A DNA stretch of 49,658 bases from positions 1-49,658 of the forward strand of contig CAYIWI010000002.1 in assembly GCA_964367065.1 (NCBI GenBank). Direction: 5' to 3'. Of this stretch, positions 6,588 through 40,230 are shown in pieces (the stretch's first letter is position 1; each line of letters begins with the position of its first letter). Below the pieces are notes generated by a model that was given only the letters and a program-made list of their open reading frames with translations, was not told the DNA's origin and searched no databases. Position numbers and translations under genes: made by a program. The DNA comes from an uncultured Gammaproteobacteria bacterium (GTDB taxonomy: Bacteria > Patescibacteriota > Microgenomatia > UBA10105 > UBA927).

Positions 6588-8353
6588 AGGACGACGACGG
6601 CTGCGATAGCGACGACGACCAGCGGAATAAACAGCACATACGTTGGCGCGATATCGAAAAAGCTGGTGGTTGTGGCATCGCCAACGCGTACGCCGATCGT
6701 TCCGCGGCGTGCAGCGGTACCTGCCGGAACTGTCAAATTGAGCGGGATGGTGATCGCGCCGTAGGGAGGGACAACAGAAAAAGTTTTGTCGTAGGTCAGA
6801 TCAACCGGCGTTGCCTGCAGGGAAACCGAAACGTCCCGCACCGCGGCTTGTCCGGTATTTTGTATCACGACCGATCCTTGCTGGGGCACACCTGCGGTAA
6901 CTTTTTTGGGGAACACAATGGTGGTCGTGAGTGCTGGGGTTGCAGGGACGGCGGATCCCTGGGCAAAGCCGACGAGCACGTCCTTGCCCTGTTTTCCCTC
7001 CTTGCGATACGATCCGGGCGGCAGGGGCGTGGTGCTTGATTTACCGTGGTTGACAAAGGCAACGTGGTTGAAATCCAGCTTGTCGAAATAATTAATTCCT
7101 CCGGTTGTTTTTCCCCACGTCGGGTCAACGGGGATCCAAATGCTCTTTTCACTATCGTAATACTCCGGCCATGCGTGCAACACATCAGCCACAAAGGACA
7201 GGGGCCGCAGCGTCGCGTTGTTGGTGTAGGCGTACCCGACCACCTCGCGTGCGGGTATGCCTGCTGCGCGGGCCATCGCGACAAACAAATCGGTAAATTC
7301 CATGCAGAGAGAATTTGCCGGAGACGCCAGCGCTGCCACGGCTCCTTTGCGGATCGGGTTTTGCTTCACCCGGCTGTCATCATAGGAAAGTGTGCCAACG
7401 ACGTAATCATAGATTTCCCGCGGTGTCCGATACTGGTTGGCGAGGCTGATGATTTTTGGGTTTTGTGTTTCCCAGTACTGGTCGCTGACGAGGTATTCGT
7501 TGGGATTAATGAACTCCCGGTATCCCTCTTTGGCAGACAACGTGACTGCTGCGGTGGCGTACACGGTGATATCCAGCGACGCGTTGGGTGCAAGCTGATA
7601 CTCAGCAAGCCAATTGCCATCAGAGTCAGCGGTGACGGAGAGGGGTTTGGGCGTGATATCAGAGACGGTAATGGTTTGATATGCAGTATCCGGAGGGAGA
7701 GCTATATGAGCCGTGGAAGGCGTAACGCCGGGGTTTTCTATGTGATACGAAAGCGCCATGGAGAAAAACTGTCTGGTGCCGTATGCCGCGCTTATGCCGC
7801 CGCGGGTAAGCTGCGCCTTGGTCCAGGTGTTGGCAGCCCCCGGAGCCGGAACCATGTACGCATTTGGCCCGAAAGACTCCGGAGTTGACAGGTTTACGGA
7901 ATAGGAGCCGATGTCCGGATCATCCGTGACGCCCGGGATGTTCACTTCCCAGATGCTTCCGTTCTTTTGCGCAATGTCGCCGTTTTCGAAGCGCAGGGTA
8001 AACTGCATGGTTTTCCCCAGGCCCACGACCTGTTCGTTGAAGGTCAGAAGAATTTCGGTTTTTCCGTCTTTTTGGCTGATGGCCGGTGAGATGGGTCCGC
8101 CGCCATCGTATGCGATGATATTTTTAAGGTGGACGGAATCGATGAGGATGGCGTACTTCTTGGGGTACAGGTTGGACAGCTTATTGGTAAGAGCTATGTT
8201 TTGCGTAACGATGGTGGTGCCGCCGGGAGAAATCGAGTACTGTACGTTGTAATCTGCGCGGAATTCTCCCGCCGCAAGCACCAGCGGCGCAATAAACAAA
8301 TAAACGAATAAACTAATAAACGAATAAACGAATGTGAAAAAAATCTTTTTCAT
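6566..8353 (-). CDS. transglutaminase-like domain protein with N-terminal signal/anchor and C-terminal TM anchor
   Basis: The transglutaminase core is present: C..F...ARAAGIPAR.V.GY, then HAWPEYY, then WIPVDPTW. The N-terminus and C-terminus are both hydrophobic. Confidence 0.75.
   Translation of the reverse strand: MKKIFFTFVYSFISLFVYLFIAPLVLAAGEFRADYNVQYSISPGGTTIVTQNIALTNKLSNLYPKKYAILIDSVHLKNIIAYDGGGPISPAISQKDGKTEILLTFNEQVVGLGKTMQFTLRFENGDIAQKNGSIWEVNIPGVTDDPDIGSYSVNLSTPESFGPNAYMVPAPGAANTWTKAQLTRGGISAAYGTRQFFSMALSYHIENPGVTPSTAHIALPPDTAYQTITVSDITPKPLSVTADSDGNWLAEYQLAPNASLDITVYATAAVTLSAKEGYREFINPNEYLVSDQYWETQNPKIISLANQYRTPREIYDYVVGTLSYDDSRVKQNPIRKGAVAALASPANSLCMEFTDLFVAMARAAGIPAREVVGYAYTNNATLRPLSFVADVLHAWPEYYDSEKSIWIPVDPTWGKTTGGINYFDKLDFNHVAFVNHGKSSTTPLPPGSYRKEGKQGKDVLVGFAQGSAVPATPALTTTIVFPKKVTAGVPQQGSVVIQNTGQAAVRDVSVSLQATPVDLTYDKTFSVVPPYGAITIPLNLTVPAGTAARRGTIGVRVGDATTTSFFDIAPTYVLFIPLVVVAIAAVVVLWKIFKR
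8291..8333 (-). repeat. five tandem 8-nt units (plus strand AATAAACN; coding strand TT[C/A/T]GTTTA) inside the signal-peptide codons of the transglutaminase-like gene
   Basis: Read directly from the plus strand: aataaaca aataaacg aataaact aataaacg aataaacg aat. An A7 run follows at 8337..8343. Confidence 0.9.
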
Positions 8354-11352: not shown

Positions 11353-13365
11353 TTAATTCAGTGAGGCAATAGTGTCCCTCAATTTTGCAGCCAGTTCGAA
11401 GTCCAGGTCGCGGCTCGCAACACGCATGGCTTTGGTTAGTTTCCCGACGAACTTTCGTGTATCAAAGGGCGTCATGGCATCCAGCTGGGTTTGGGAGATG
11501 CCGAGAAGTTCCTGGACTGTGGCTTCGTGACGCTCCTGTTCTTTTTCCACCAGGCGCTGCCGGATGGGTTTTTGGATCGATTGGGGCGTTATACCGTGCT
11601 TTTTATTATATGCCTCCTGCACCGCACGTCGGCGACCAACTTCCTCCAGTGCATTTCGTATGGAATCTGTGATCGTATCCGCATAGAGAATTACGCTGCC
11701 CTGCACGTGGCGCGCGGCGCGGCCCATGGTTTGGATAAGGCTGATTTTACTGCGCAGGAACCCCTCCTTATCCGCATCGAGTATCGCAACCAATGCTACT
11801 TCCGGAAGATCCAGTCCCTCCCTGAGCAAATTAACGCCGACGATCACATCGTAGGTGCCGGCCCGCAGGTCTGCCAAAATATCGCTTCGTTCAAGCGTGA
11901 GGATATCGGCGTGTAGATAATGGACCTTGATGCCCTTTTCTTTCAAAAACGCCGAGAGGTCTTCCGCCATTTGCTTGGTGAGGGTGGTCACCAGCACCCG
12001 TTCTTTTTTGGCAACGCGCTGCTGAATTTCCTTGAATAGGTCGTCAATTTGTCCCTCTACGGGTCGCACGGAAACAAGCGGATCGAGGAGGCCTGTGGGT
12101 CTGACGAGCTGCTCCACAGTAGCCTCTGCGCGACCTGTCTCCCACGCATCCGGAGTGGCAGAGGCATAGATGGTTTGCGGCATACGGCGTAAAAATTCGT
12201 CAAACCGCAGCGGCCGGTTGTCGATGGCCGCAGGCAGACGGAAACCGTAATCAATCAGCGTCTGCTTGCGGCTCCGGTCGCCGTTGTACATACCGCGGAT
12301 TTGCGGGATCGTCTGGTGCGATTCATCAATGAGCAGAAGCCAATCCTTGAAGGATGCGATCCTTCCGGTTTGCGAGGCTTCGTCAAAATAGTCCAGCAAT
12401 GTATACGGGGGCTCCCCCGGCTTTCTGCCGTCGAAATACCGCGAATAATTTTCAATGCCGTTGACGTACCCCAGCTCGCTGATCATTTCCAGATCATAGG
12501 TCACGCGCTGTTGGATGCGCTGCGCCTCGATGAGCTTATTGGTGCTTTTAAAGTAGGCAACTTGTGCCTCAAGGTCGTTTTGAATTTCCTTAAATACTTG
12601 TTTATACCTTGCCGGATCAGTCATGTAGTGCTTGGCCGGATAAATGACGGTGCCCGGAAGCTCTTCGATGGTTTTACCCGTCAGCGGATCAAATTTGTCT
12701 AATTTGACTAATTTGTCCAATTTGGTGACAAAACGAATTCCGGTATCTTCATATGCCGGAAACACGTCAATGGTGCCGCCCCGAACGCGAAAGGTGCTCC
12801 GGTGAAAGCCGTAGTCACTCCGCTCATACTGCAGCTGGACCAGGCGCTCCACAATGCTTTCGCGGCTCACGTTCATGCCGGATTTGAGTTCCAGCACAAA
12901 ATGCCCGTATTCCTTGGGCGAGCCGATGTTGTAAATGGAAGAAACCGAAGCCACGACTATGGTATCCGGACGGGTGAGGATATTGGTTGTTGCAGCCAGG
13001 CGCAGCTTATCGATTTCTTCGTTTATCTCGGTTTCCTTTTCTATGTACGTGTCTGTTTGGGGGATATAGGCCTCGGGTTGATAATAATCATAATAGGACA
13101 CAAAGTAGGAAACCGCGTTGTTGGGGAAAAAGTCACGGAATTCCTGATACAGTTGAGCTGCAAGCGTTTTGTTATGCGAAATCACCAGGGTCGGCCGCTG
13201 GACGGCCTGAATGACATTGGCGATGGTGAATGTCTTGCCGCTGCCGGTGACCCCCAAAAGCACCTGTTCTGTCGCACCCGACCGAAGGCCACGGTTGAGT
13301 GCCTCAATTGCTTCTGGTTGGTCGCCGGCGGGCGCAAACGGGGCGTGGAGAGAAAAGTGTTTCAT
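11353..13365 (-). CDS. uvrB: excinuclease ABC subunit B
   Basis: Helicase motifs are present (GVTGSGKTFT, DESH, and a C-terminal UVR domain with FELAAKLRD). The protein is 670 aa. Confidence 0.96.
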   Translation of the reverse strand: MKHFSLHAPFAPAGDQPEAIEALNRGLRSGATEQVLLGVTGSGKTFTIANVIQAVQRPTLVISHNKTLAAQLYQEFRDFFPNNAVSYFVSYYDYYQPEAYIPQTDTYIEKETEINEEIDKLRLAATTNILTRPDTIVVASVSSIYNIGSPKEYGHFVLELKSGMNVSRESIVERLVQLQYERSDYGFHRSTFRVRGGTIDVFPAYEDTGIRFVTKLDKLVKLDKFDPLTGKTIEELPGTVIYPAKHYMTDPARYKQVFKEIQNDLEAQVAYFKSTNKLIEAQRIQQRVTYDLEMISELGYVNGIENYSRYFDGRKPGEPPYTLLDYFDEASQTGRIASFKDWLLLIDESHQTIPQIRGMYNGDRSRKQTLIDYGFRLPAAIDNRPLRFDEFLRRMPQTIYASATPDAWETGRAEATVEQLVRPTGLLDPLVSVRPVEGQIDDLFKEIQQRVAKKERVLVTTLTKQMAEDLSAFLKEKGIKVHYLHADILTLERSDILADLRAGTYDVIVGVNLLREGLDLPEVALVAILDADKEGFLRSKISLIQTMGRAARHVQGSVILYADTITDSIRNALEEVGRRRAVQEAYNKKHGITPQSIQKPIRQRLVEKEQERHEATVQELLGISQTQLDAMTPFDTRKFVGKLTKAMRVASRDLDFELAAKLRDTIASLN

Positions 13366-14702: not shown

Positions 14703-14726
14703 AAATAAAAACGCGCGGTCATGCGC

Positions 14727-14732
14727 TATAAT
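14727..14732 (+). promoter_or_regulatory. -10 box TATAAT located 6 nt upstream of the rsmI ATG (leaderless-type arrangement)
   Basis: Read directly from the sequence: gcgcTATAATgattgtATG. Confidence 0.5.
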
Positions 14733-14738
14733 GATTGT

Positions 14739-15536
14739 ATGGGAACACTGTTCATTGTGTCAACACCGATCGGGAACCTGGAAGATATCACCATCCGTGC
14801 CATAAAAACGCTGTTTTCCGTGGATATCATCGCCTGCGAGGATACGCGAAGAACAGGACTATTGTTAAATGAATTAAAGAAACGATACGGTAGTCTTTAT
14901 TCTTCGAGCGAGGAGTCTTCGACGAGTCGAGAAGTTCATGCCGAAAGTTCTCGACTTCGCTCGAACAATAAGTCAGAACCAAGGCTGCTAAGCTACTATG
15001 ATCAAATTGAGCAATCAAAAACTCCTGAACTCATCGAACTACTTGAACAGGGAAAAGAAGTCGCATTGGTCAGTGACGCCGGAACGCCTCTTGTCTCCGA
15101 CCCGGGCTACAAACTTGTCCGAGAAGCAATCAGACGAGGTATTACAGTGGTAAGCATCCCCGGCCCGACTGCCGCAATAGCCGCGCTTACCGCAAGCGGA
15201 CTTCCGACAGACAAATTTTTATTCCTCGGCTACCCGCCGGAAAAATCATCGCATCGCATCAGACTCTTTGAATCTCTTTCAGAAGTGTTCAAAAGACCTC
15301 GCCTTGTCGAAGCAAGGCGAGGTCTTGATAAATCCCCGACGTTTATCTTCTACTGCGCGCCACATAAACTTGTACAAACGCTTGAAGACATGAAGCAAAC
15401 ACTTGGCGACATCGATATTGTCATCGCCCGGGAACTGACCAAGGTTCACGAGGAAGTATGGCGAGGAAGCATTTCAGAGGCGATTGTTGAGTTTCAGTTA
15501 CCTAAAGGCGAGATAGTCCTGCTTTTTTGCTTATAA
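14739..15536 (+). CDS. rsmI: 16S rRNA (cytidine1402-2'-O)-methyltransferase RsmI, carrying two in-frame palindromic insertions
   Basis: TP-methylase fold motifs are present (LFIVSTPIGNLEDIT.RA...ACEDTRRTG; SDAGTPLVSDPG; ARELTK.HEE). The start at ATG 14739 (MGTLFIV) matches canonical N-termini. Confidence 0.9.
   Translation: MGTLFIVSTPIGNLEDITIRAIKTLFSVDIIACEDTRRTGLLLNELKKRYGSLYSSSEESSTSREVHAESSRLRSNNKSEPRLLSYYDQIEQSKTPELIELLEQGKEVALVSDAGTPLVSDPGYKLVREAIRRGITVVSIPGPTAAIAALTASGLPTDKFLFLGYPPEKSSHRIRLFESLSEVFKRPRLVEARRGLDKSPTFIFYCAPHKLVQTLEDMKQTLGDIDIVIARELTKVHEEVWRGSISEAIVEFQLPKGEIVLLFCL
14900..14971 (+). repeat. 72-nt palindromic repeat element, copy 1, in frame within rsmI (encodes SSSEESSTSREVHAESSRLRSNNK)
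   Basis: It is ~89% identical to the reverse complement of 29183..29253. Internal inverted repeats are TTCGAGCGA/TCGCTCGAA (outer) and GTCGAGAA/TTCTCGAC (inner). Confidence 0.85.
15294..15325 (+). repeat. perfect 13-bp-stem, 6-nt-loop palindrome in frame within rsmI (encodes KRPRLVEARRGL)
   Basis: Read directly from the sequence: AGACCTCGCCTTG tcgaag CAAGGCGAGGTCT. Confidence 0.9.

Positions 15537-15856: not shown

Positions 15857-15860
<4 letters not shown>
15833..15860 (-). promoter_or_regulatory. candidate promoter TTGACA-16 nt-TATTAT, 8 nt upstream of ATG 15824, overlapping the acs stop codon
   Basis: The minus strand reads TTGACAgacgcgcaatttgtgcTATTATatggccctATG. Confidence 0.45.
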
Positions 15861-17619
<1,759 letters not shown>

Positions 17620-17623
<4 letters not shown>

Positions 17624-28283: not shown

Positions 28284-29546
28284 TTATTCACCTCCTTTGT
28301 AATACTTCTTCCCTTTTATTCTATCAGGTAACAGACTCTCTGCGCTATACGGTTGGTAGCCGCGGCCGTAACCTAATCCTTTCATAAGCTTCGTCGGTGC
28401 ATTGCGAATCGGTAAGGGGATAGGAAGGTTTCCCAACTGTTTCACGTCTTCAAGCGCGCGAAAATACGCATCATAGGCGCTCCGGTCTTTTTTAGCCAGG
28501 GAAAGGTAAACAACACCGTGGGCAAGATTTTCCTGACACTCGGGATAGCCGATCTTGTTACACGCATCAAATACCGCATCGGCAACCACGAGTGCCGTGG
28601 GCTGTGCCATGCCGATGTCTTCGGAGGCAAAGACTACCATGCGCCGTGCAATAAACAGCGGATCTTCGCCTGCCGCAACCATGCGCGCCAAATAATAGAG
28701 TGCCGCATCCACGTCACTGGCCCGCATGGATTTGATGAAGGCGGAAATGGTGTTGTAGTGCTCATCGCCGACCCGGTCGTACTGAAGCATTTTACGCTGT
28801 GCCGCTTCCTCGATATGTGCAGTCGTAAACTTGACAGGGTCTGACCCTGTCAAACGCGCGGCAATTTCAAGGATGGTCAGAAGTGCCCGGGCGTCACCAT
28901 TGGAAACTTCCAGTAAAAACCCGCGCGCATCGTCTGAAATAGATCGTTTGAGGTATGCTAGTCCTCGATCAATAAGTGTACTCAATTCCTTTTCGGTAAG
29001 CGGATTGAGTACAAAAACTCTGCATCGTGAGAGGAGAGGAGAAATGACTTCAAAAGAGGGGTTTTCGGTCGTTGCGCCGATAAAAATAATCGTTCCTTTT
29101 TCCACATGGGGCAATAAGGCATCTTGCTGTGCTTTATTAAACCGGTGGATCTCATCAAGAAAAAATATCGTCCGTTGCGGTATTATTGTTCGAGCTTGTC
29201 GAGAACTTCCTTGATGAACTTCTCGACTCGTCAAAGACTCCTCGCTCGAAGAAGAGAGAGTATTGAGCCTATCTTTTGCCTCTTTGACAACTCTCCGTAC
29301 ATCGGCGAGCGTAGCGCTGACGGCAGAATGCGACTCAAAGTGAGCATTCGTAAGCGTTGCCAAAAGGTGGGCAAGGGTCGTTTTGCCGCACCCGGGAGGT
29401 CCCCAAAATATCATGGAAGGCAAAAAACCGGAAGTGAGGAATTTTCTGATAATGCCGGATTCACCAACAAGATGGGCTTGCCCGATGAGCTCATCAAGCG
29501 TTTGAGGCCTGAGGATTTCTGCAAGCGGCCGGCTCTCGGTCATCAT
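28284..29546 (-). CDS. rarA: replication-associated recombination protein A (AAA+ ATPase RarA/MgsA) carrying an in-frame palindromic insertion
   Basis: Walker A GPPGCGKTT, Walker B FFLDEIHRFNK.QQD and the C-terminal MgsA domain (HYNTISAFIKSMRASD..AALYYLARM) are present. Confidence 0.92.
   Translation of the reverse strand: MMTESRPLAEILRPQTLDELIGQAHLVGESGIIRKFLTSGFLPSMIFWGPPGCGKTTLAHLLATLTNAHFESHSAVSATLADVRRVVKEAKDRLNTLSSSSEESLTSREVHQGSSRQARTIIPQRTIFFLDEIHRFNKAQQDALLPHVEKGTIIFIGATTENPSFEVISPLLSRCRVFVLNPLTEKELSTLIDRGLAYLKRSISDDARGFLLEVSNGDARALLTILEIAARLTGSDPVKFTTAHIEEAAQRKMLQYDRVGDEHYNTISAFIKSMRASDVDAALYYLARMVAAGEDPLFIARRMVVFASEDIGMAQPTALVVADAVFDACNKIGYPECQENLAHGVVYLSLAKKDRSAYDAYFRALEDVKQLGNLPIPLPIRNAPTKLMKGLGYGRGYQPYSAESLLPDRIKGKKYYKGGE
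29183..29253 (-). repeat. 71-nt palindromic repeat element, copy 2, in frame within rarA (encodes SSSEESLTSREVHQGSSRQARTII)
   Basis: Its reverse complement aligns with 14900..14971. The differences cluster in the inner loop, and there is a 1-nt indel near the 3' end. It lies in the same orientation relative to the host reading frame as copy 1. Confidence 0.85.
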
Positions 29547-29550
29547 AGGT

Positions 29551-29556
29551 ATTGTA
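29551..29556 (-). promoter_or_regulatory. -10 box TACAAT located 4 nt (7 nt) upstream of the first (second) ATG of rarA
   Basis: The minus strand reads gaggtgTACAATacctATGATG. Confidence 0.4.
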
Positions 29557-29603
29557 CACCTCTCAAACTTCGTACACCACCAAAGCGAGATGGCTGCATA
29601 GTG

Positions 29604-29609
29604 TATAAT
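29604..29609 (+). promoter_or_regulatory. -10 box TATAAT located 8 nt upstream of the tdk ATG
   Basis: Read directly from the sequence: agtgTATAATaccattatATG. There is no Shine-Dalgarno sequence. Confidence 0.45.
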
Positions 29610-29617
29610 ACCATTAT

Positions 29618-30193
29618 ATGAAACCTCAAAAAACGGGCTACCTGGAAGTCATTGCAGGACCCATGTATTGCGGCAAAACCGAAGAGCTTATCCGTCAGGT
29701 CAAGCGTGCGTCCATTGGTAAAAAACAGGTGCAGGTATTCAAGCACGTCATTGATACGCGCTACGGCAAAGCGAAAAAAATCTTCTCCCACGCGGGATTA
29801 AGCTTTGAGTCGGAACTTATTTCCAAAGCATCTCACGTACTCAACCGTCTGCATCCGAAAACGGATATCGTGGCCATTGATGAAGCGCAGTGGTTTGGCG
29901 AAGACCTCGTGGCTGTTGTGGAAACACTGCTTGCTCGCGGCAAGCGCGTGCTGGTGTCGGGTCTGGCAATGACCTTTGACCGGCAACCGTTTGCACCGAT
30001 CCCGACCCTTATGGCAATGGCAGATAAAGTGACCAAGCTTTCCGCCGTCTGCGTCGTGTGCGGCGAGGAAGCGGTGTTTCACAAGCGCATCGGAAAAAAG
30101 AAAACCGTCAATCCGCTCAAGGCAGACCCCTCCCTCGTCGGCCGCTCCGATGCGTACGAAGCCAGGTGCCGGAAGTGCTTCCATAAGCCATAA
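29618..30193 (+). CDS. tdk: thymidine kinase
   Basis: The P-loop GPMYCGKTEEL, the DEAQF-like IDEAQWF and the C-terminal Zn-binding cysteines (C.VCG...C..C) are present. Confidence 0.94.
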   Translation: MKPQKTGYLEVIAGPMYCGKTEELIRQVKRASIGKKQVQVFKHVIDTRYGKAKKIFSHAGLSFESELISKASHVLNRLHPKTDIVAIDEAQWFGEDLVAVVETLLARGKRVLVSGLAMTFDRQPFAPIPTLMAMADKVTKLSAVCVVCGEEAVFHKRIGKKKTVNPLKADPSLVGRSDAYEARCRKCFHKP

Positions 30194-35466: not shown

Positions 35467-35845
35467 TGATGCGCGTAGCAGCCTTGCCCGTGCGGCCGCG
35501 CAGGTAGTAGAGCTTGGCGCGTCGAACGTCTCCGCGCTTCTTTACTTCGATTTTCTTAATCCACGGAGACACGATGGGAAATATGCGCTCGATTCCGATC
35601 GCTCCGGCACCGATTCTCCGTACTGTAAACATGGTGTTTTCGCCCGATCCGCGGATGGCAAGAACAATGCCTTCAAAAACCTGGGTGCGCTCATGAGTTT
35701 CCTCGTGAACTTCGCGCTTGGTTTTGCCGGATACTTTTTCTTTTTCTATAAGTTTATAGTGCACGCGCACGGTATCGCCAACATGAAACTCGACAGTTTT
35801 TTTTGTCTCACCCTCATCGCAAGTCCACACGCTCATATTTGCCAT
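35426..35845 (-). CDS. rplS: 50S ribosomal protein L19
   Basis: The pattern GDTVRVHYK...[13 protein letters not shown]...[33 protein letters not shown] is present. It carries an insert of ~11 aa and short terminal extensions relative to E. coli and B. subtilis L19. Confidence 0.94.
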
Positions 35846-39408: not shown

Positions 39409-40230
39409 CTACTTTCGATACCTGTTGATATCCACCTTCAATTTTTGTGCCTCGACTCTCGCTTTTTGTGCAAAATCTTCGTCGTTTGAGGCAAAAATAA
39501 TACTGCGGGATGAGTTGATGATAGCGTTTTTGCCTTGACTGTCAACACCTGCTTTGATGGTTTTTTCAACATCTCCTCCTTGTGCGCCAATGCCGGGAAC
39601 CAACAAAGCCATGTCCCCCACAATACGTCGTACAATCTCAAGTTCCCCGGGGTAGGTGGCACCAACGACTAAGCCACAGTTTCCATTTTCGTTCCATTCA
39701 TTTGCCACTTTCCCAGCAATCACTTGGTAAAGTGGCTTACCGTCAGTAACAAGATCCTGAAGTTCCCCAGCTCCGGGGTTAGATGTCCGGCAAAGAATAA
39801 AACTCCCCTTCTCTTTCCGCTCAAGAAATGGAAGTATCGCATCCTTCCCTAAGTAAGGGTGCAAGGTAATTGCGTCAGCGCCAAGGTAATCAAATGCAAA
39901 TTGGACATACCCTTCATTTGTGCTTCCTATATCTGCCCGCTTCGCGTCCAGAATAATCACAACCTCCGGGTACTTCTCCCTCAGGTAATCGCAAGTCATT
40001 TTCAGTTCTGCGATGCCTTGTACTCCCCTTGCCTCATAAAAGGCGCTGTTGGGCTTATAGGCGCACACAAGGTCATGCGTTGCGTCAATGATAGCTTTAT
40101 TGAAGGTAAACTGCGGAGCATTACCGCCTTGCAAATGCGCAGGAAGCTTATGTAACTCACTGTCCAGCCCTATGCAAACAAGAGAATTTTGCTTTTCAAC
40201 AATGGCGTCAAGTTTTTGGTAGAACGTCAT
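39409..40230 (-). CDS. pyrF: orotidine 5'-phosphate decarboxylase (type 2)
   Basis: The motifs LVCIGLD and ILDAKRADIG are present, and the 273-aa length is typical of type-2 ODCases. Confidence 0.9.
   Translation of the reverse strand: MTFYQKLDAIVEKQNSLVCIGLDSELHKLPAHLQGGNAPQFTFNKAIIDATHDLVCAYKPNSAFYEARGVQGIAELKMTCDYLREKYPEVVIILDAKRADIGSTNEGYVQFAFDYLGADAITLHPYLGKDAILPFLERKEKGSFILCRTSNPGAGELQDLVTDGKPLYQVIAGKVANEWNENGNCGLVVGATYPGELEIVRRIVGDMALLVPGIGAQGGDVEKTIKAGVDSQGKNAIINSSRSIIFASNDEDFAQKARVEAQKLKVDINRYRK

Follow-up and report, generated by a model that had tools for sequence, protein, structure and literature searches.

Two copies of a small palindromic element lie in frame within the housekeeping genes rsmI and rarA of a 49,658-nucleotide (nt) contig (CAYIWI010000002.1, analysed over its whole length and hereafter called the window). 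We propose, at a probability of about 0.7, that the rsmI segment belongs to a family of small palindromic elements, non-coding and dispersed, that is specific to groundwater Patescibacteria of the Microgenomates group (Gottesmanbacteria-like). Copies of the element are dispersed over diverse host genes, whose reading frame they retain, and most orthologous sites are empty; base pairing within the element covaries, its stems are conserved at the nucleotide level, and in the host proteins it falls at predicted loops. [quoted passage not shown]

Two related inserts in rsmI and rarA

As determined by pairwise alignment, the segments at 14900-14971 (+) in rsmI and 29183-29253 (-) in rarA are ~88-89% identical across ~72 nt. 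They form the longest inverted repeat of the 49.6-kb window, in which a repeat search returned no comparable repeat, and their 37-nt core occurs exactly twice, compared with 0.00 expected from 100 shuffles. A covariance model of the element likewise recovers exactly two copies in the window (2 in 49.6 kb), and one at each further locus that we fetched. Copy 1 (14897..14971, +; 101.5 bits, E=3e-31) is in frame in rsmI; it is of the short 70-nt form and of subtype A, with the right end GACTTCGCTCGAACAATA, and encodes YSSSEESSTSREVHAESSRLRSNN. Copy 2 (29184..29255, -; 85.6 bits, E=6e-26) is in frame in rarA and is also of the short form; it belongs to subtype B, with the right end GAC-AAGCTCGAACAATA, and encodes SSSSEESLTSREVHQGSSRQARTII. 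Both are inserted in sense orientation within full-length open reading frames (ORFs) and share one reading frame over most of their length, giving the peptides SSSEESSTSREVHAESSRLRSNNK (rsmI) and SSSEESLTSREVHQGSSRQARTII (rarA). The differences between the two copies are concentrated in the loop of hairpin 2 and at the 3' junction, near which a 1-nt indel alters the last seven codons (SSRLRSNN versus SSRQARTI). A single-base difference is also present within the hairpin-1 remnant of the rarA copy: at position 29226 the window reads SSSEESLTSREV and P0122, by which the window RarA is represented in clusters of 90% identity, reads SSSEESSTSREV (GTCTTTGAC and GTCTTCGAC, respectively), a population-level single-nucleotide polymorphism.

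Host gene 1 (14721..15536, +; true start likely the ATG at 14739) encodes RsmI, the 16S rRNA (cytidine1402-2'-O)-methyltransferase with its TP_methylase domain, and is intact on either side of the insert; RsmI residues 52-86 stand in place of four residues of the Escherichia coli enzyme (5HW4). Host gene 2 (28284..29546, -) encodes the AAA+ replication-associated recombination protein RarA/MgsA. Here, the insert follows a helix that ends at about residue 95 and precedes the Walker B strand (126-131); residues 96-122, directly before that strand, stand in place of a single residue of E. coli MgsA (3PVS). Five independent assemblies from the Hainich groundwater well H43 carry the rsmI copy without a single base difference, and it is therefore no chimera; together with the presence of the family in data from unrelated sites, these identical loci rule out an assembly artefact. 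The nearest RsmI and RarA proteins derive from metagenome-assembled genomes labelled 'Patescibacteria group', 'Microgenomates group' and 'Candidatus Gottesmanbacteria'.

These data bear out much of an earlier note on the sequence, which had described a ~72-nt repeat common to both genes, in the same orientation relative to the host frame, made of palindromic outer and inner arms, differing between copies in the inner loop and by a 1-nt indel near the 3' end, and encoding peptides absent from canonical RsmI and RarA; against 5HW4 and 3PVS both inserts are clean insertions, and the indel shifts the frame of the last seven codons. The degenerate third copy that the note had suspected in rplS (35687-35716) has to be dropped: with filters switched off, the covariance model has no hit in that interval at E<=10, and 13% of random windows reach the score of 11 that local alignment gives there at best.

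Anatomy and predicted fold of the element

The rsmI copy begins with the 5' arm of the outer stem, the terminal inverted repeat (TIR) TTATTCTTCGAGCGA (14897..14911, +), which pairs with TCGCTCGAACAATAA at 14957-14971 except for one C.C mismatch. These outer arms are 15 nt long and 93% complementary, the inner arms 12 nt and 92%. Enclosed by the outer stem are the remnant of hairpin 1, GTC-TTC-GAC (14915..14923, +), at a position where full-length copies hold a 6-9 bp hairpin of varying sequence, and hairpin 2 (14925..14956, +), whose arms AGTCGAGAAGTT and AAGTTCTCGACT surround a hypervariable loop. Across eight copies the hairpin-2 stem is invariant, whereas identity in its loop is 27-55%.

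The full-length form of the element measures 105-118 nt (loci L017, L019, L020/L023, L021 and L028). Its TIR of 16-18 bp, GTTCTCTTCGAGCGAG...CTCGCTCGAAGAGAAC, closes three hairpins and thereby defines a four-way junction, which is predicted to fold cleanly in the L028 copy (-69.6 kcal/mol). Hairpin 1 varies in sequence but is always self-complementary, as in GTCCGCC..GGCGGAC, GTCCCG..CGGGAC and GTCCGATGC..GCATCGGGC. The window copies are of a derivative reduced to 70 nt: of hairpin 1 only GTC-TTC-GAC is left, and hairpin 3 is missing; this derivative is itself present in several genes. Over its entire size range of 70-118 nt the element has no coding capacity of its own.

Taken alone, the two short window copies have modest fold z-scores (-2.9 and -1.9), and the structural support is therefore drawn from the wider family. 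In an alignment of 12 copies with explicit structure, 88.7% of the paired cells are complementary, compared with 36-46% after the partners have been slid; six pairs have changed on both sides, and the covariation score exceeds those of all 500 shuffles. The terminal arms comprise 13-18 bp, and their outermost pairs show compensatory changes between the short and long forms. Rfam 15 returns no match at the element, either in the long copies or in the window, and a tRNA-like or ribozyme four-way junction was rejected for want of support from ARAGORN or Rfam. The dinucleotide TA stands on both sides of seven of eight short copies, and the tandem pair in L018 has one TA in common. The long form is without TA flanks, and for a comparison aimed at target duplication the empty RarA sites are strongly diverged.

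Dispersal across genes and genomes

Scanning metagenome contigs with a pattern over the conserved left half returned 14 loci, 13 of which are true copies; the remaining one, L027, was discarded as a chance match in an acidic low-complexity protein. These loci and the contigs reached via orthologues place the element in at least seven unrelated host genes from several Microgenomates genomes, the host ORF being intact throughout. In-frame copies reside in RsmI (several lineages), RarA (window and L031/L032), an S-adenosylmethionine-dependent methyltransferase (L024), an M24 aminopeptidase (L025) and a GT4 glycosyltransferase, in the latter at the inter-domain linker (L020/L023/L030). A TsaD/TsaB-family protein (L021) reads the element in a different frame (FFERGV...), and the head domain of a CCA-adding enzyme (L019) carries it as an antisense insertion that is still in frame. 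Intergenic copies are found as well: in L017 the convergent HIT and S1-domain genes are separated by exactly the element, and in L022/L029 it lies upstream of a class I aminoacyl-tRNA synthetase gene. Two elements abut in L018, and truncated copies occur in L015 and L018. Although five of the six frames of the element are open, the orientation and frame that give SSSEES... are used at five of the seven independent intragenic sites. Pfam matches are kept on both sides of the insert in all hosts whose sequence permits checking.

Between unrelated loci the element is 84-92% identical, whereas the genes flanking rsmI share only 68-71% identity between the same genomes, the GC content of which ranges from 38 to 52%. 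Moreover, subtypes cross hosts: the derived subtype B right end, GAC-AAGCTCGAA, is common to the rarA copy of the window and the methyltransferase copy of L024 (from a genome of 41% GC), and the subtype A right end GACTTCGCTCGAA is common to the RsmI, M24 and L022 copies. This crossing of subtypes between hosts and genomes is the signal expected of copy-paste spread. In reference-genome contigs the 19-mer core gave five matches, all by chance and confined to the core; viral contigs gave none; and a 33-column peptide profile run against 1.8 billion representatives retrieved one match, another RsmI, its power being too low for counting hosts.

Filled and empty sites among orthologues

The RarA site was inspected in an alignment of the window protein with its 120 closest homologues. 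It is empty in 118 of the 121 sequences, including the nearest ones at 83-84% identity (P0123 and P0124). The only filled sequences are those of the window, of P0122, which is its own cluster, and of P0126, which is more distant (76%); the insert position is identical in all three. Filled and empty sites align cleanly as DNA, with insert lengths of 75 and 84 nt. An ancient shared linker is ruled out, since the nearest RarA orthologues lack the insert. Given the tree ((window, L033, L034), L031), the distribution implies two gains, or one gain followed by clean loss.

The corresponding site in RsmI is hypervariable: 40 of 117 orthologues exceed the modal spacing, and at least four peptide families can be recognized. 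About ten of the 117 carry a peptide of the SSSEES type; further ones fall into the VIPAxAGIQ..LDPRF and PALTKSRHGES types. The element is absent from ~90%. Loci L012 and L016 have the same insertion point and the same left-flank DNA but hold different subtypes, which indicates that a resident copy has been remodelled, converted or replaced.

Protein context and constraint on the stems

In AlphaFold models built with the orthologue alignments, the cores of both proteins fold confidently, and the inserts are placed between core elements at a predicted local distance difference test score (pLDDT) below 50, as coil or loop in RsmI (residues 64-83) and as a loop in RarA (residues 99-120). By these models, and by the inter-domain linker occupied in GT4, the insert is predicted to lie at the surface, at a position compatible with the protein fold. 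Every intragenic copy examined retains the host frame and is free of stop codons, which argues for translation rather than bypass or splicing. Expected insert-spanning tryptic peptides include EVHAESSR and YGSLYSSSEESSTSR.

To see what is conserved in the element, we compared identity at codon positions 1/2/3 among RsmI orthologues. It amounts to 0.78/0.86/0.46 in the flanking gene, to 0.97/0.97/0.905 in the element stems and to 0.46/0.55/0.27 in the hairpin-2 loop; for third positions, stems and flanks differ at Fisher p ~1e-20, the pairs being non-independent. The flat conservation of the stems over codon positions points to a constraint on their nucleotides and not on the peptide.

Origin of the element and alternative explanations

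On the basis of these results, we favour a non-autonomous element that would be mobilized in trans, now or formerly, by an enzyme not encoded nearby. In these gene-dense genomes its copies would persist only if their length is a multiple of three, if they are stop-free in the host frame and if they sit in a tolerant loop or inter-domain linker. There the element would be translated as a disordered hydrophilic loop and would be near-neutral for the host. The sequence of the stems and TIR may be kept by the element's own requirements, namely recognition for mobility and integrity of the hairpins, and conversion between copies possibly helps to keep it.

The earlier note had compared the repeat with selfish RPE-like hairpins that colonise ORFs. 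Dispersal, empty sites, loops and covariation speak for this comparison, whereas the element is not confined to ORFs, to one frame or to one orientation: most copies are intragenic, but intergenic, antisense and second-frame copies exist. The other expectations raised there agree with the data, as further copies were found in unrelated genes and other genomes, the insert is lineage-specific among close RarA orthologues, both inserts are predicted as low-confidence loops between folded core elements, and pairing is kept across copies with compensatory changes.

Several observations weigh against a mobile, near-neutral element. Neither the window nor the fetched flanks contain a transposase, integrase or Y1/RAYT gene (RAYT, REP-associated tyrosine transposase; REP, repetitive extragenic palindromic sequence), and a cognate autonomous insertion sequence (IS) with matching ends was not seen there either. 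We saw no unambiguous target-site duplication, the TA aligning with TIR positions of the long form, and the data examined hold no presence/absence polymorphism within a population. The copies counted amount to two in the 49.6-kb window and one at each fetched locus. Finally, neutral selfish DNA offers no simple explanation of why the stems are so strongly conserved in orthologous copies.

This last point leads to the main rival, which we nevertheless consider unlikely: a domesticated cis-acting nucleic-acid signal, in which the stems form a DNA or mRNA binding or processing site for a conserved protein. Purifying selection would keep such a site inside ORFs, with the peptide as a by-product, and possible roles are nuclease or RNase processing, mRNA stability, translation pausing or a nucleoid or uptake signal. 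In its favour, the stems are 90-97% identical at all codon positions, while third positions elsewhere in RsmI are saturated (46%) and the loop is free; the element sequence is unchanged over genomes of 38-52% GC; compensatory changes keep the pairing; and the intergenic copy of L017 fits exactly between two convergent genes. However, its sporadic presence among close orthologues, with 118 of 121 RarA and ~90% of RsmI lacking it, shows the element to be dispensable. The host genes are functionally unrelated, both orientations are found, which argues against a signal at the RNA level, truncated copies persist (L015 and L018), no Rfam family matches, and the density is as low as ~1 per 25 kb. Selection at the protein level, by which a Ser/Glu-rich linker or modification site would spread through recombination as a functional peptide module, appears far less probable still. 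The common orientation and frame (SSSEES...) at five of seven independent intragenic sites, despite five of six open frames, would fit such a module, as would the hydrophilic and predicted disordered nature of the peptide. Yet conservation is flat over codon positions and disappears in the codons of the loop, the reverse of what selection on the protein would leave; moreover, the RarA and L024 copies receive a different C-terminal peptide through a 1-nt indel, the copies in the TsaB-family protein and the CCA enzyme use other frames, and intergenic copies exist.

Hairpins might instead arise in situ, by fold-back or template-switch repair at fragile sites, the similarity of rsmI and rarA then being due to ectopic gene conversion. 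Many different near-perfect hairpins at the same protein sites in different lineages (UvrA, UvrB, AMP-ligase and RsmI) would agree with this, and so would the common insertion point of L012 and L016 with their different subtypes. But the same 70-110 nt sequence recurs in at least seven unrelated genes and several genomes, with subtype signatures crossing hosts, which in-situ generation cannot produce, and the arms are not copied from adjacent host sequence; we therefore regard this origin as quite improbable. The mitochondrial 'byp' hairpins and the T4 gene 60 gap are precedents for sequences bypassed by ribosomes. An untranslated intervening sequence, either bypassed in this manner or removed from the mRNA, is the explanation to which we give the least credence. 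A stable hairpin inside an ORF is its sole resemblance to the present case, whereas the examined intragenic copies are in frame and stop-free, the ORFs run through them with domains on both sides, and the RarA inserts measure 75 and 84 nt; this constraint would not exist were the segment skipped. The mobile element kept as a tolerated loop thus remains the reading that we prefer.

Further hairpin inserts and neighbouring genes

To place the element among other length changes, 11 syntenic housekeeping proteins of the window were compared with those of its relatives L035 and L036, counting insertion blocks of at least seven residues. Strong hairpin DNA (z<-2.5, several at -6 to -7) underlies 8 of 19 lineage-specific insertion blocks, compared with 3 of 198 control segments (1.5%; Mann-Whitney p=6e-5), which suggests that the phenomenon is wider than one family. 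The inserted hairpins have near-perfect stems of 12-17 bp, are in frame and lie at shared sites (UvrA ~225, UvrB ~417, AMP-ligase ~431 and two sites in RsmI) that hold different palindromes in different lineages; some of these palindromes belong to dispersed families of their own.

Individual cases illustrate this diversity. A second RsmI insert at 15293-15326 (+), KRPRLVEARRGLDKS, is absent from E. coli RsmI and forms an in-frame hairpin with a perfect 14-bp stem (AAGACCTCGCCTTG-tcgaag-CAAGGCGAGGTCTT; fold z=-7.1); related peptides are found there in the orthologues P0003, P0008 and P0015. Another dispersed hairpin family is based on GGAAGGATGCGAT, a motif also present in L025. In the window it is represented by a full in-frame hairpin insert at 16291-16334 in the AMP-ligase gene (15857-17623, -), which L036 lacks and in whose place L035 has another palindrome, by a mini-palindrome in uvrB (12344-12366), and by 21 nt at 39828-39848 in the OMP decarboxylase gene pyrF (39409-40230, -) that are identical to one arm of the family. 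UvrA (residues ~225-251) and UvrB (~417-447) of both L035 and L036 contain near-perfect in-frame hairpins of 15-17 bp, at the same positions and with different sequences; the window has none. The UvrB palindrome of L036 recurs at 98% identity in the intergenic region between UvrB and LexA of L012/L013/L014.

At the first RsmI site, a repeat family read as VIPAxAGIQ...LDPRFRGDD occurs in P0019, P0021, P0023, P0025, P0090 and P0098. It is found at 10103-10240 of L036, and related DNA lies at 1727-1762 of L022, inside a large ORF of L022/L029. The peptide resembles those encoded by many spurious ORFs in environmental genomes. The DinB/IMS gene of L033 (GCA_016218185.1) has an in-frame hairpin insert, ALSLRGVFSDEAISKDCHASLAMTT, at 591-674. 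It has GCGAGGAGT...CGACGA...CTTCGCTCG in common with the element and differs in its outer 13-bp stem (TTGTCATTGCGAG / CTCGCAATGACAA); judged by this partial match, it may be a distant relative within a superfamily that includes the rsmI/rarA element. This DinB/IMS gene (256-1549 of L033, called as two overlapping ORFs) is located immediately upstream of rarA. At the equivalent position of the window (29543-30184, -) are a thymidine kinase gene (29618-30193, +) and short, non-matching minus-strand ORFs, which marks a break in synteny. Two further local inverted repeats inside ORFs are not insertions relative to L035/L036, namely a perfect 11-bp palindrome in rarA (28831-28853; TTGACAGGGTC-G-GACCCTGTCAA) and 26-nt arms of 77% complementarity in a transglutaminase-like gene (8209-8286). 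The window contains housekeeping genes only, encoding an ABC transporter, UvrABC, LexA, glycolytic enzymes, thymidine kinase, a P-type ATPase, ribosomal protein L19, CTP synthase, the pyrimidine pathway, CarAB and ATP synthase, together with two tRNAs.

A bolder proposal would be that hairpin insertion is a major, so far unrecognized route of protein-length evolution in Patescibacteria, whose families re-enter permissive or structure-prone sites of essential genes. The rsmI/rarA family would then be dual-coding, its stems being under sequence-specific purifying selection for a function at the DNA or RNA level, such as recognition by a lineage-specific protein, while they are also translated. 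We hold this proposal tentatively and consider it doubtful as a whole.

Relation to known repeat elements

The closest parallel is provided by the Rickettsia palindromic elements RPE-1 to RPE-10 (Ogata et al. 2000, as summarised in PMC10969869), which a 2024 review of prokaryotic MITEs presents as an exceptional case (PMC10969869). Like these, the element is a dispersed palindromic repeat found in frame in unrelated housekeeping genes of a reduced genome, is predicted to be read through as a hydrophilic peptide at fold-compatible positions, also occurs between genes, co-exists with several other families and has no known transposase. It differs in its host, a patescibacterium instead of an alphaproteobacterium, in its size (70-118 nt versus ~100-150 nt for RPEs), in the four-way junction with a TIR of 16-18 bp that characterizes its full form, and in stems that are near-identical across genomes of 38-52% GC. 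Because the host is a Microgenomates-group patescibacterium, we regard the element, by analogy, as a counterpart of RPEs and not as a member of their family; relatedness in sequence would not be expected.

MITEs with TA-flanked TIRs include Correia/CREE of Neisseria, RUP of pneumococcus and other derivatives of IS630/Tc1-mariner. The element resembles them in being small, non-coding, multicopy and hairpin-folding, with TIRs, and in the TA flanks of seven of eight short copies, one TA being common to the tandem pair. However, most copies of those MITEs lie between genes, and their parent IS can be identified, whereas the element is found mainly within genes and in frame, no parent IS was seen in the window or fetched flanks, and its TA may belong to the TIR rather than being duplicated. 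By definition, REP sequences lie outside genes; they measure 20-40 nt and contain a GTAG motif, and a RAYT is encoded in their genomes. With REPs, bacterial interspersed mosaic elements (BIMEs) and RAYT/Y1-mobilized REPINs (REP doublets forming hairpins), the element has in common short hairpin repeats with conserved stems and variable loops; in contrast to them it is without GTAG, most of its copies are intragenic, at odds with the extragenic location that defines REPs, and no Y1 gene was seen in the 49.6-kb window. Yeast mitochondrial GC-cluster or 'byp' hairpins, intragenic enterobacterial repetitive intergenic consensus (ERIC) and BOX sequences, and the small dispersed repeats of cyanobacteria are likewise small mobile hairpins tolerated in coding sequence, with several families co-existing. 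But byps are bypassed by ribosomes and need not be in frame, ERIC and BOX are rarely intragenic, and the element differs from this whole group in genetic system and sequence.

In the full-text literature we found no description of in-frame palindromic or MITE elements in the Candidate Phyla Radiation (CPR)/Patescibacteria. We place the element as a new family within a known class of repeats; the phylum is new for this class, and there are indications that the pattern there is broader. Rickettsia is the textbook and near-unique case of selfish palindromes in frame within essential genes; the present family constitutes a clear second case, in an unrelated phylum with likewise small, gene-dense genomes, which suggests that genome reduction repeatedly leads to hairpin elements within genes. 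Such inserts lengthen proteins, split domain matches, as exemplified by the PolyA_pol head domain in L019, and create spurious shared 'motifs' across CPR proteins. The near-invariant stems, set against saturated synonymous sites, offer a testable handle on whether an element of this kind is purely selfish or has been co-opted.

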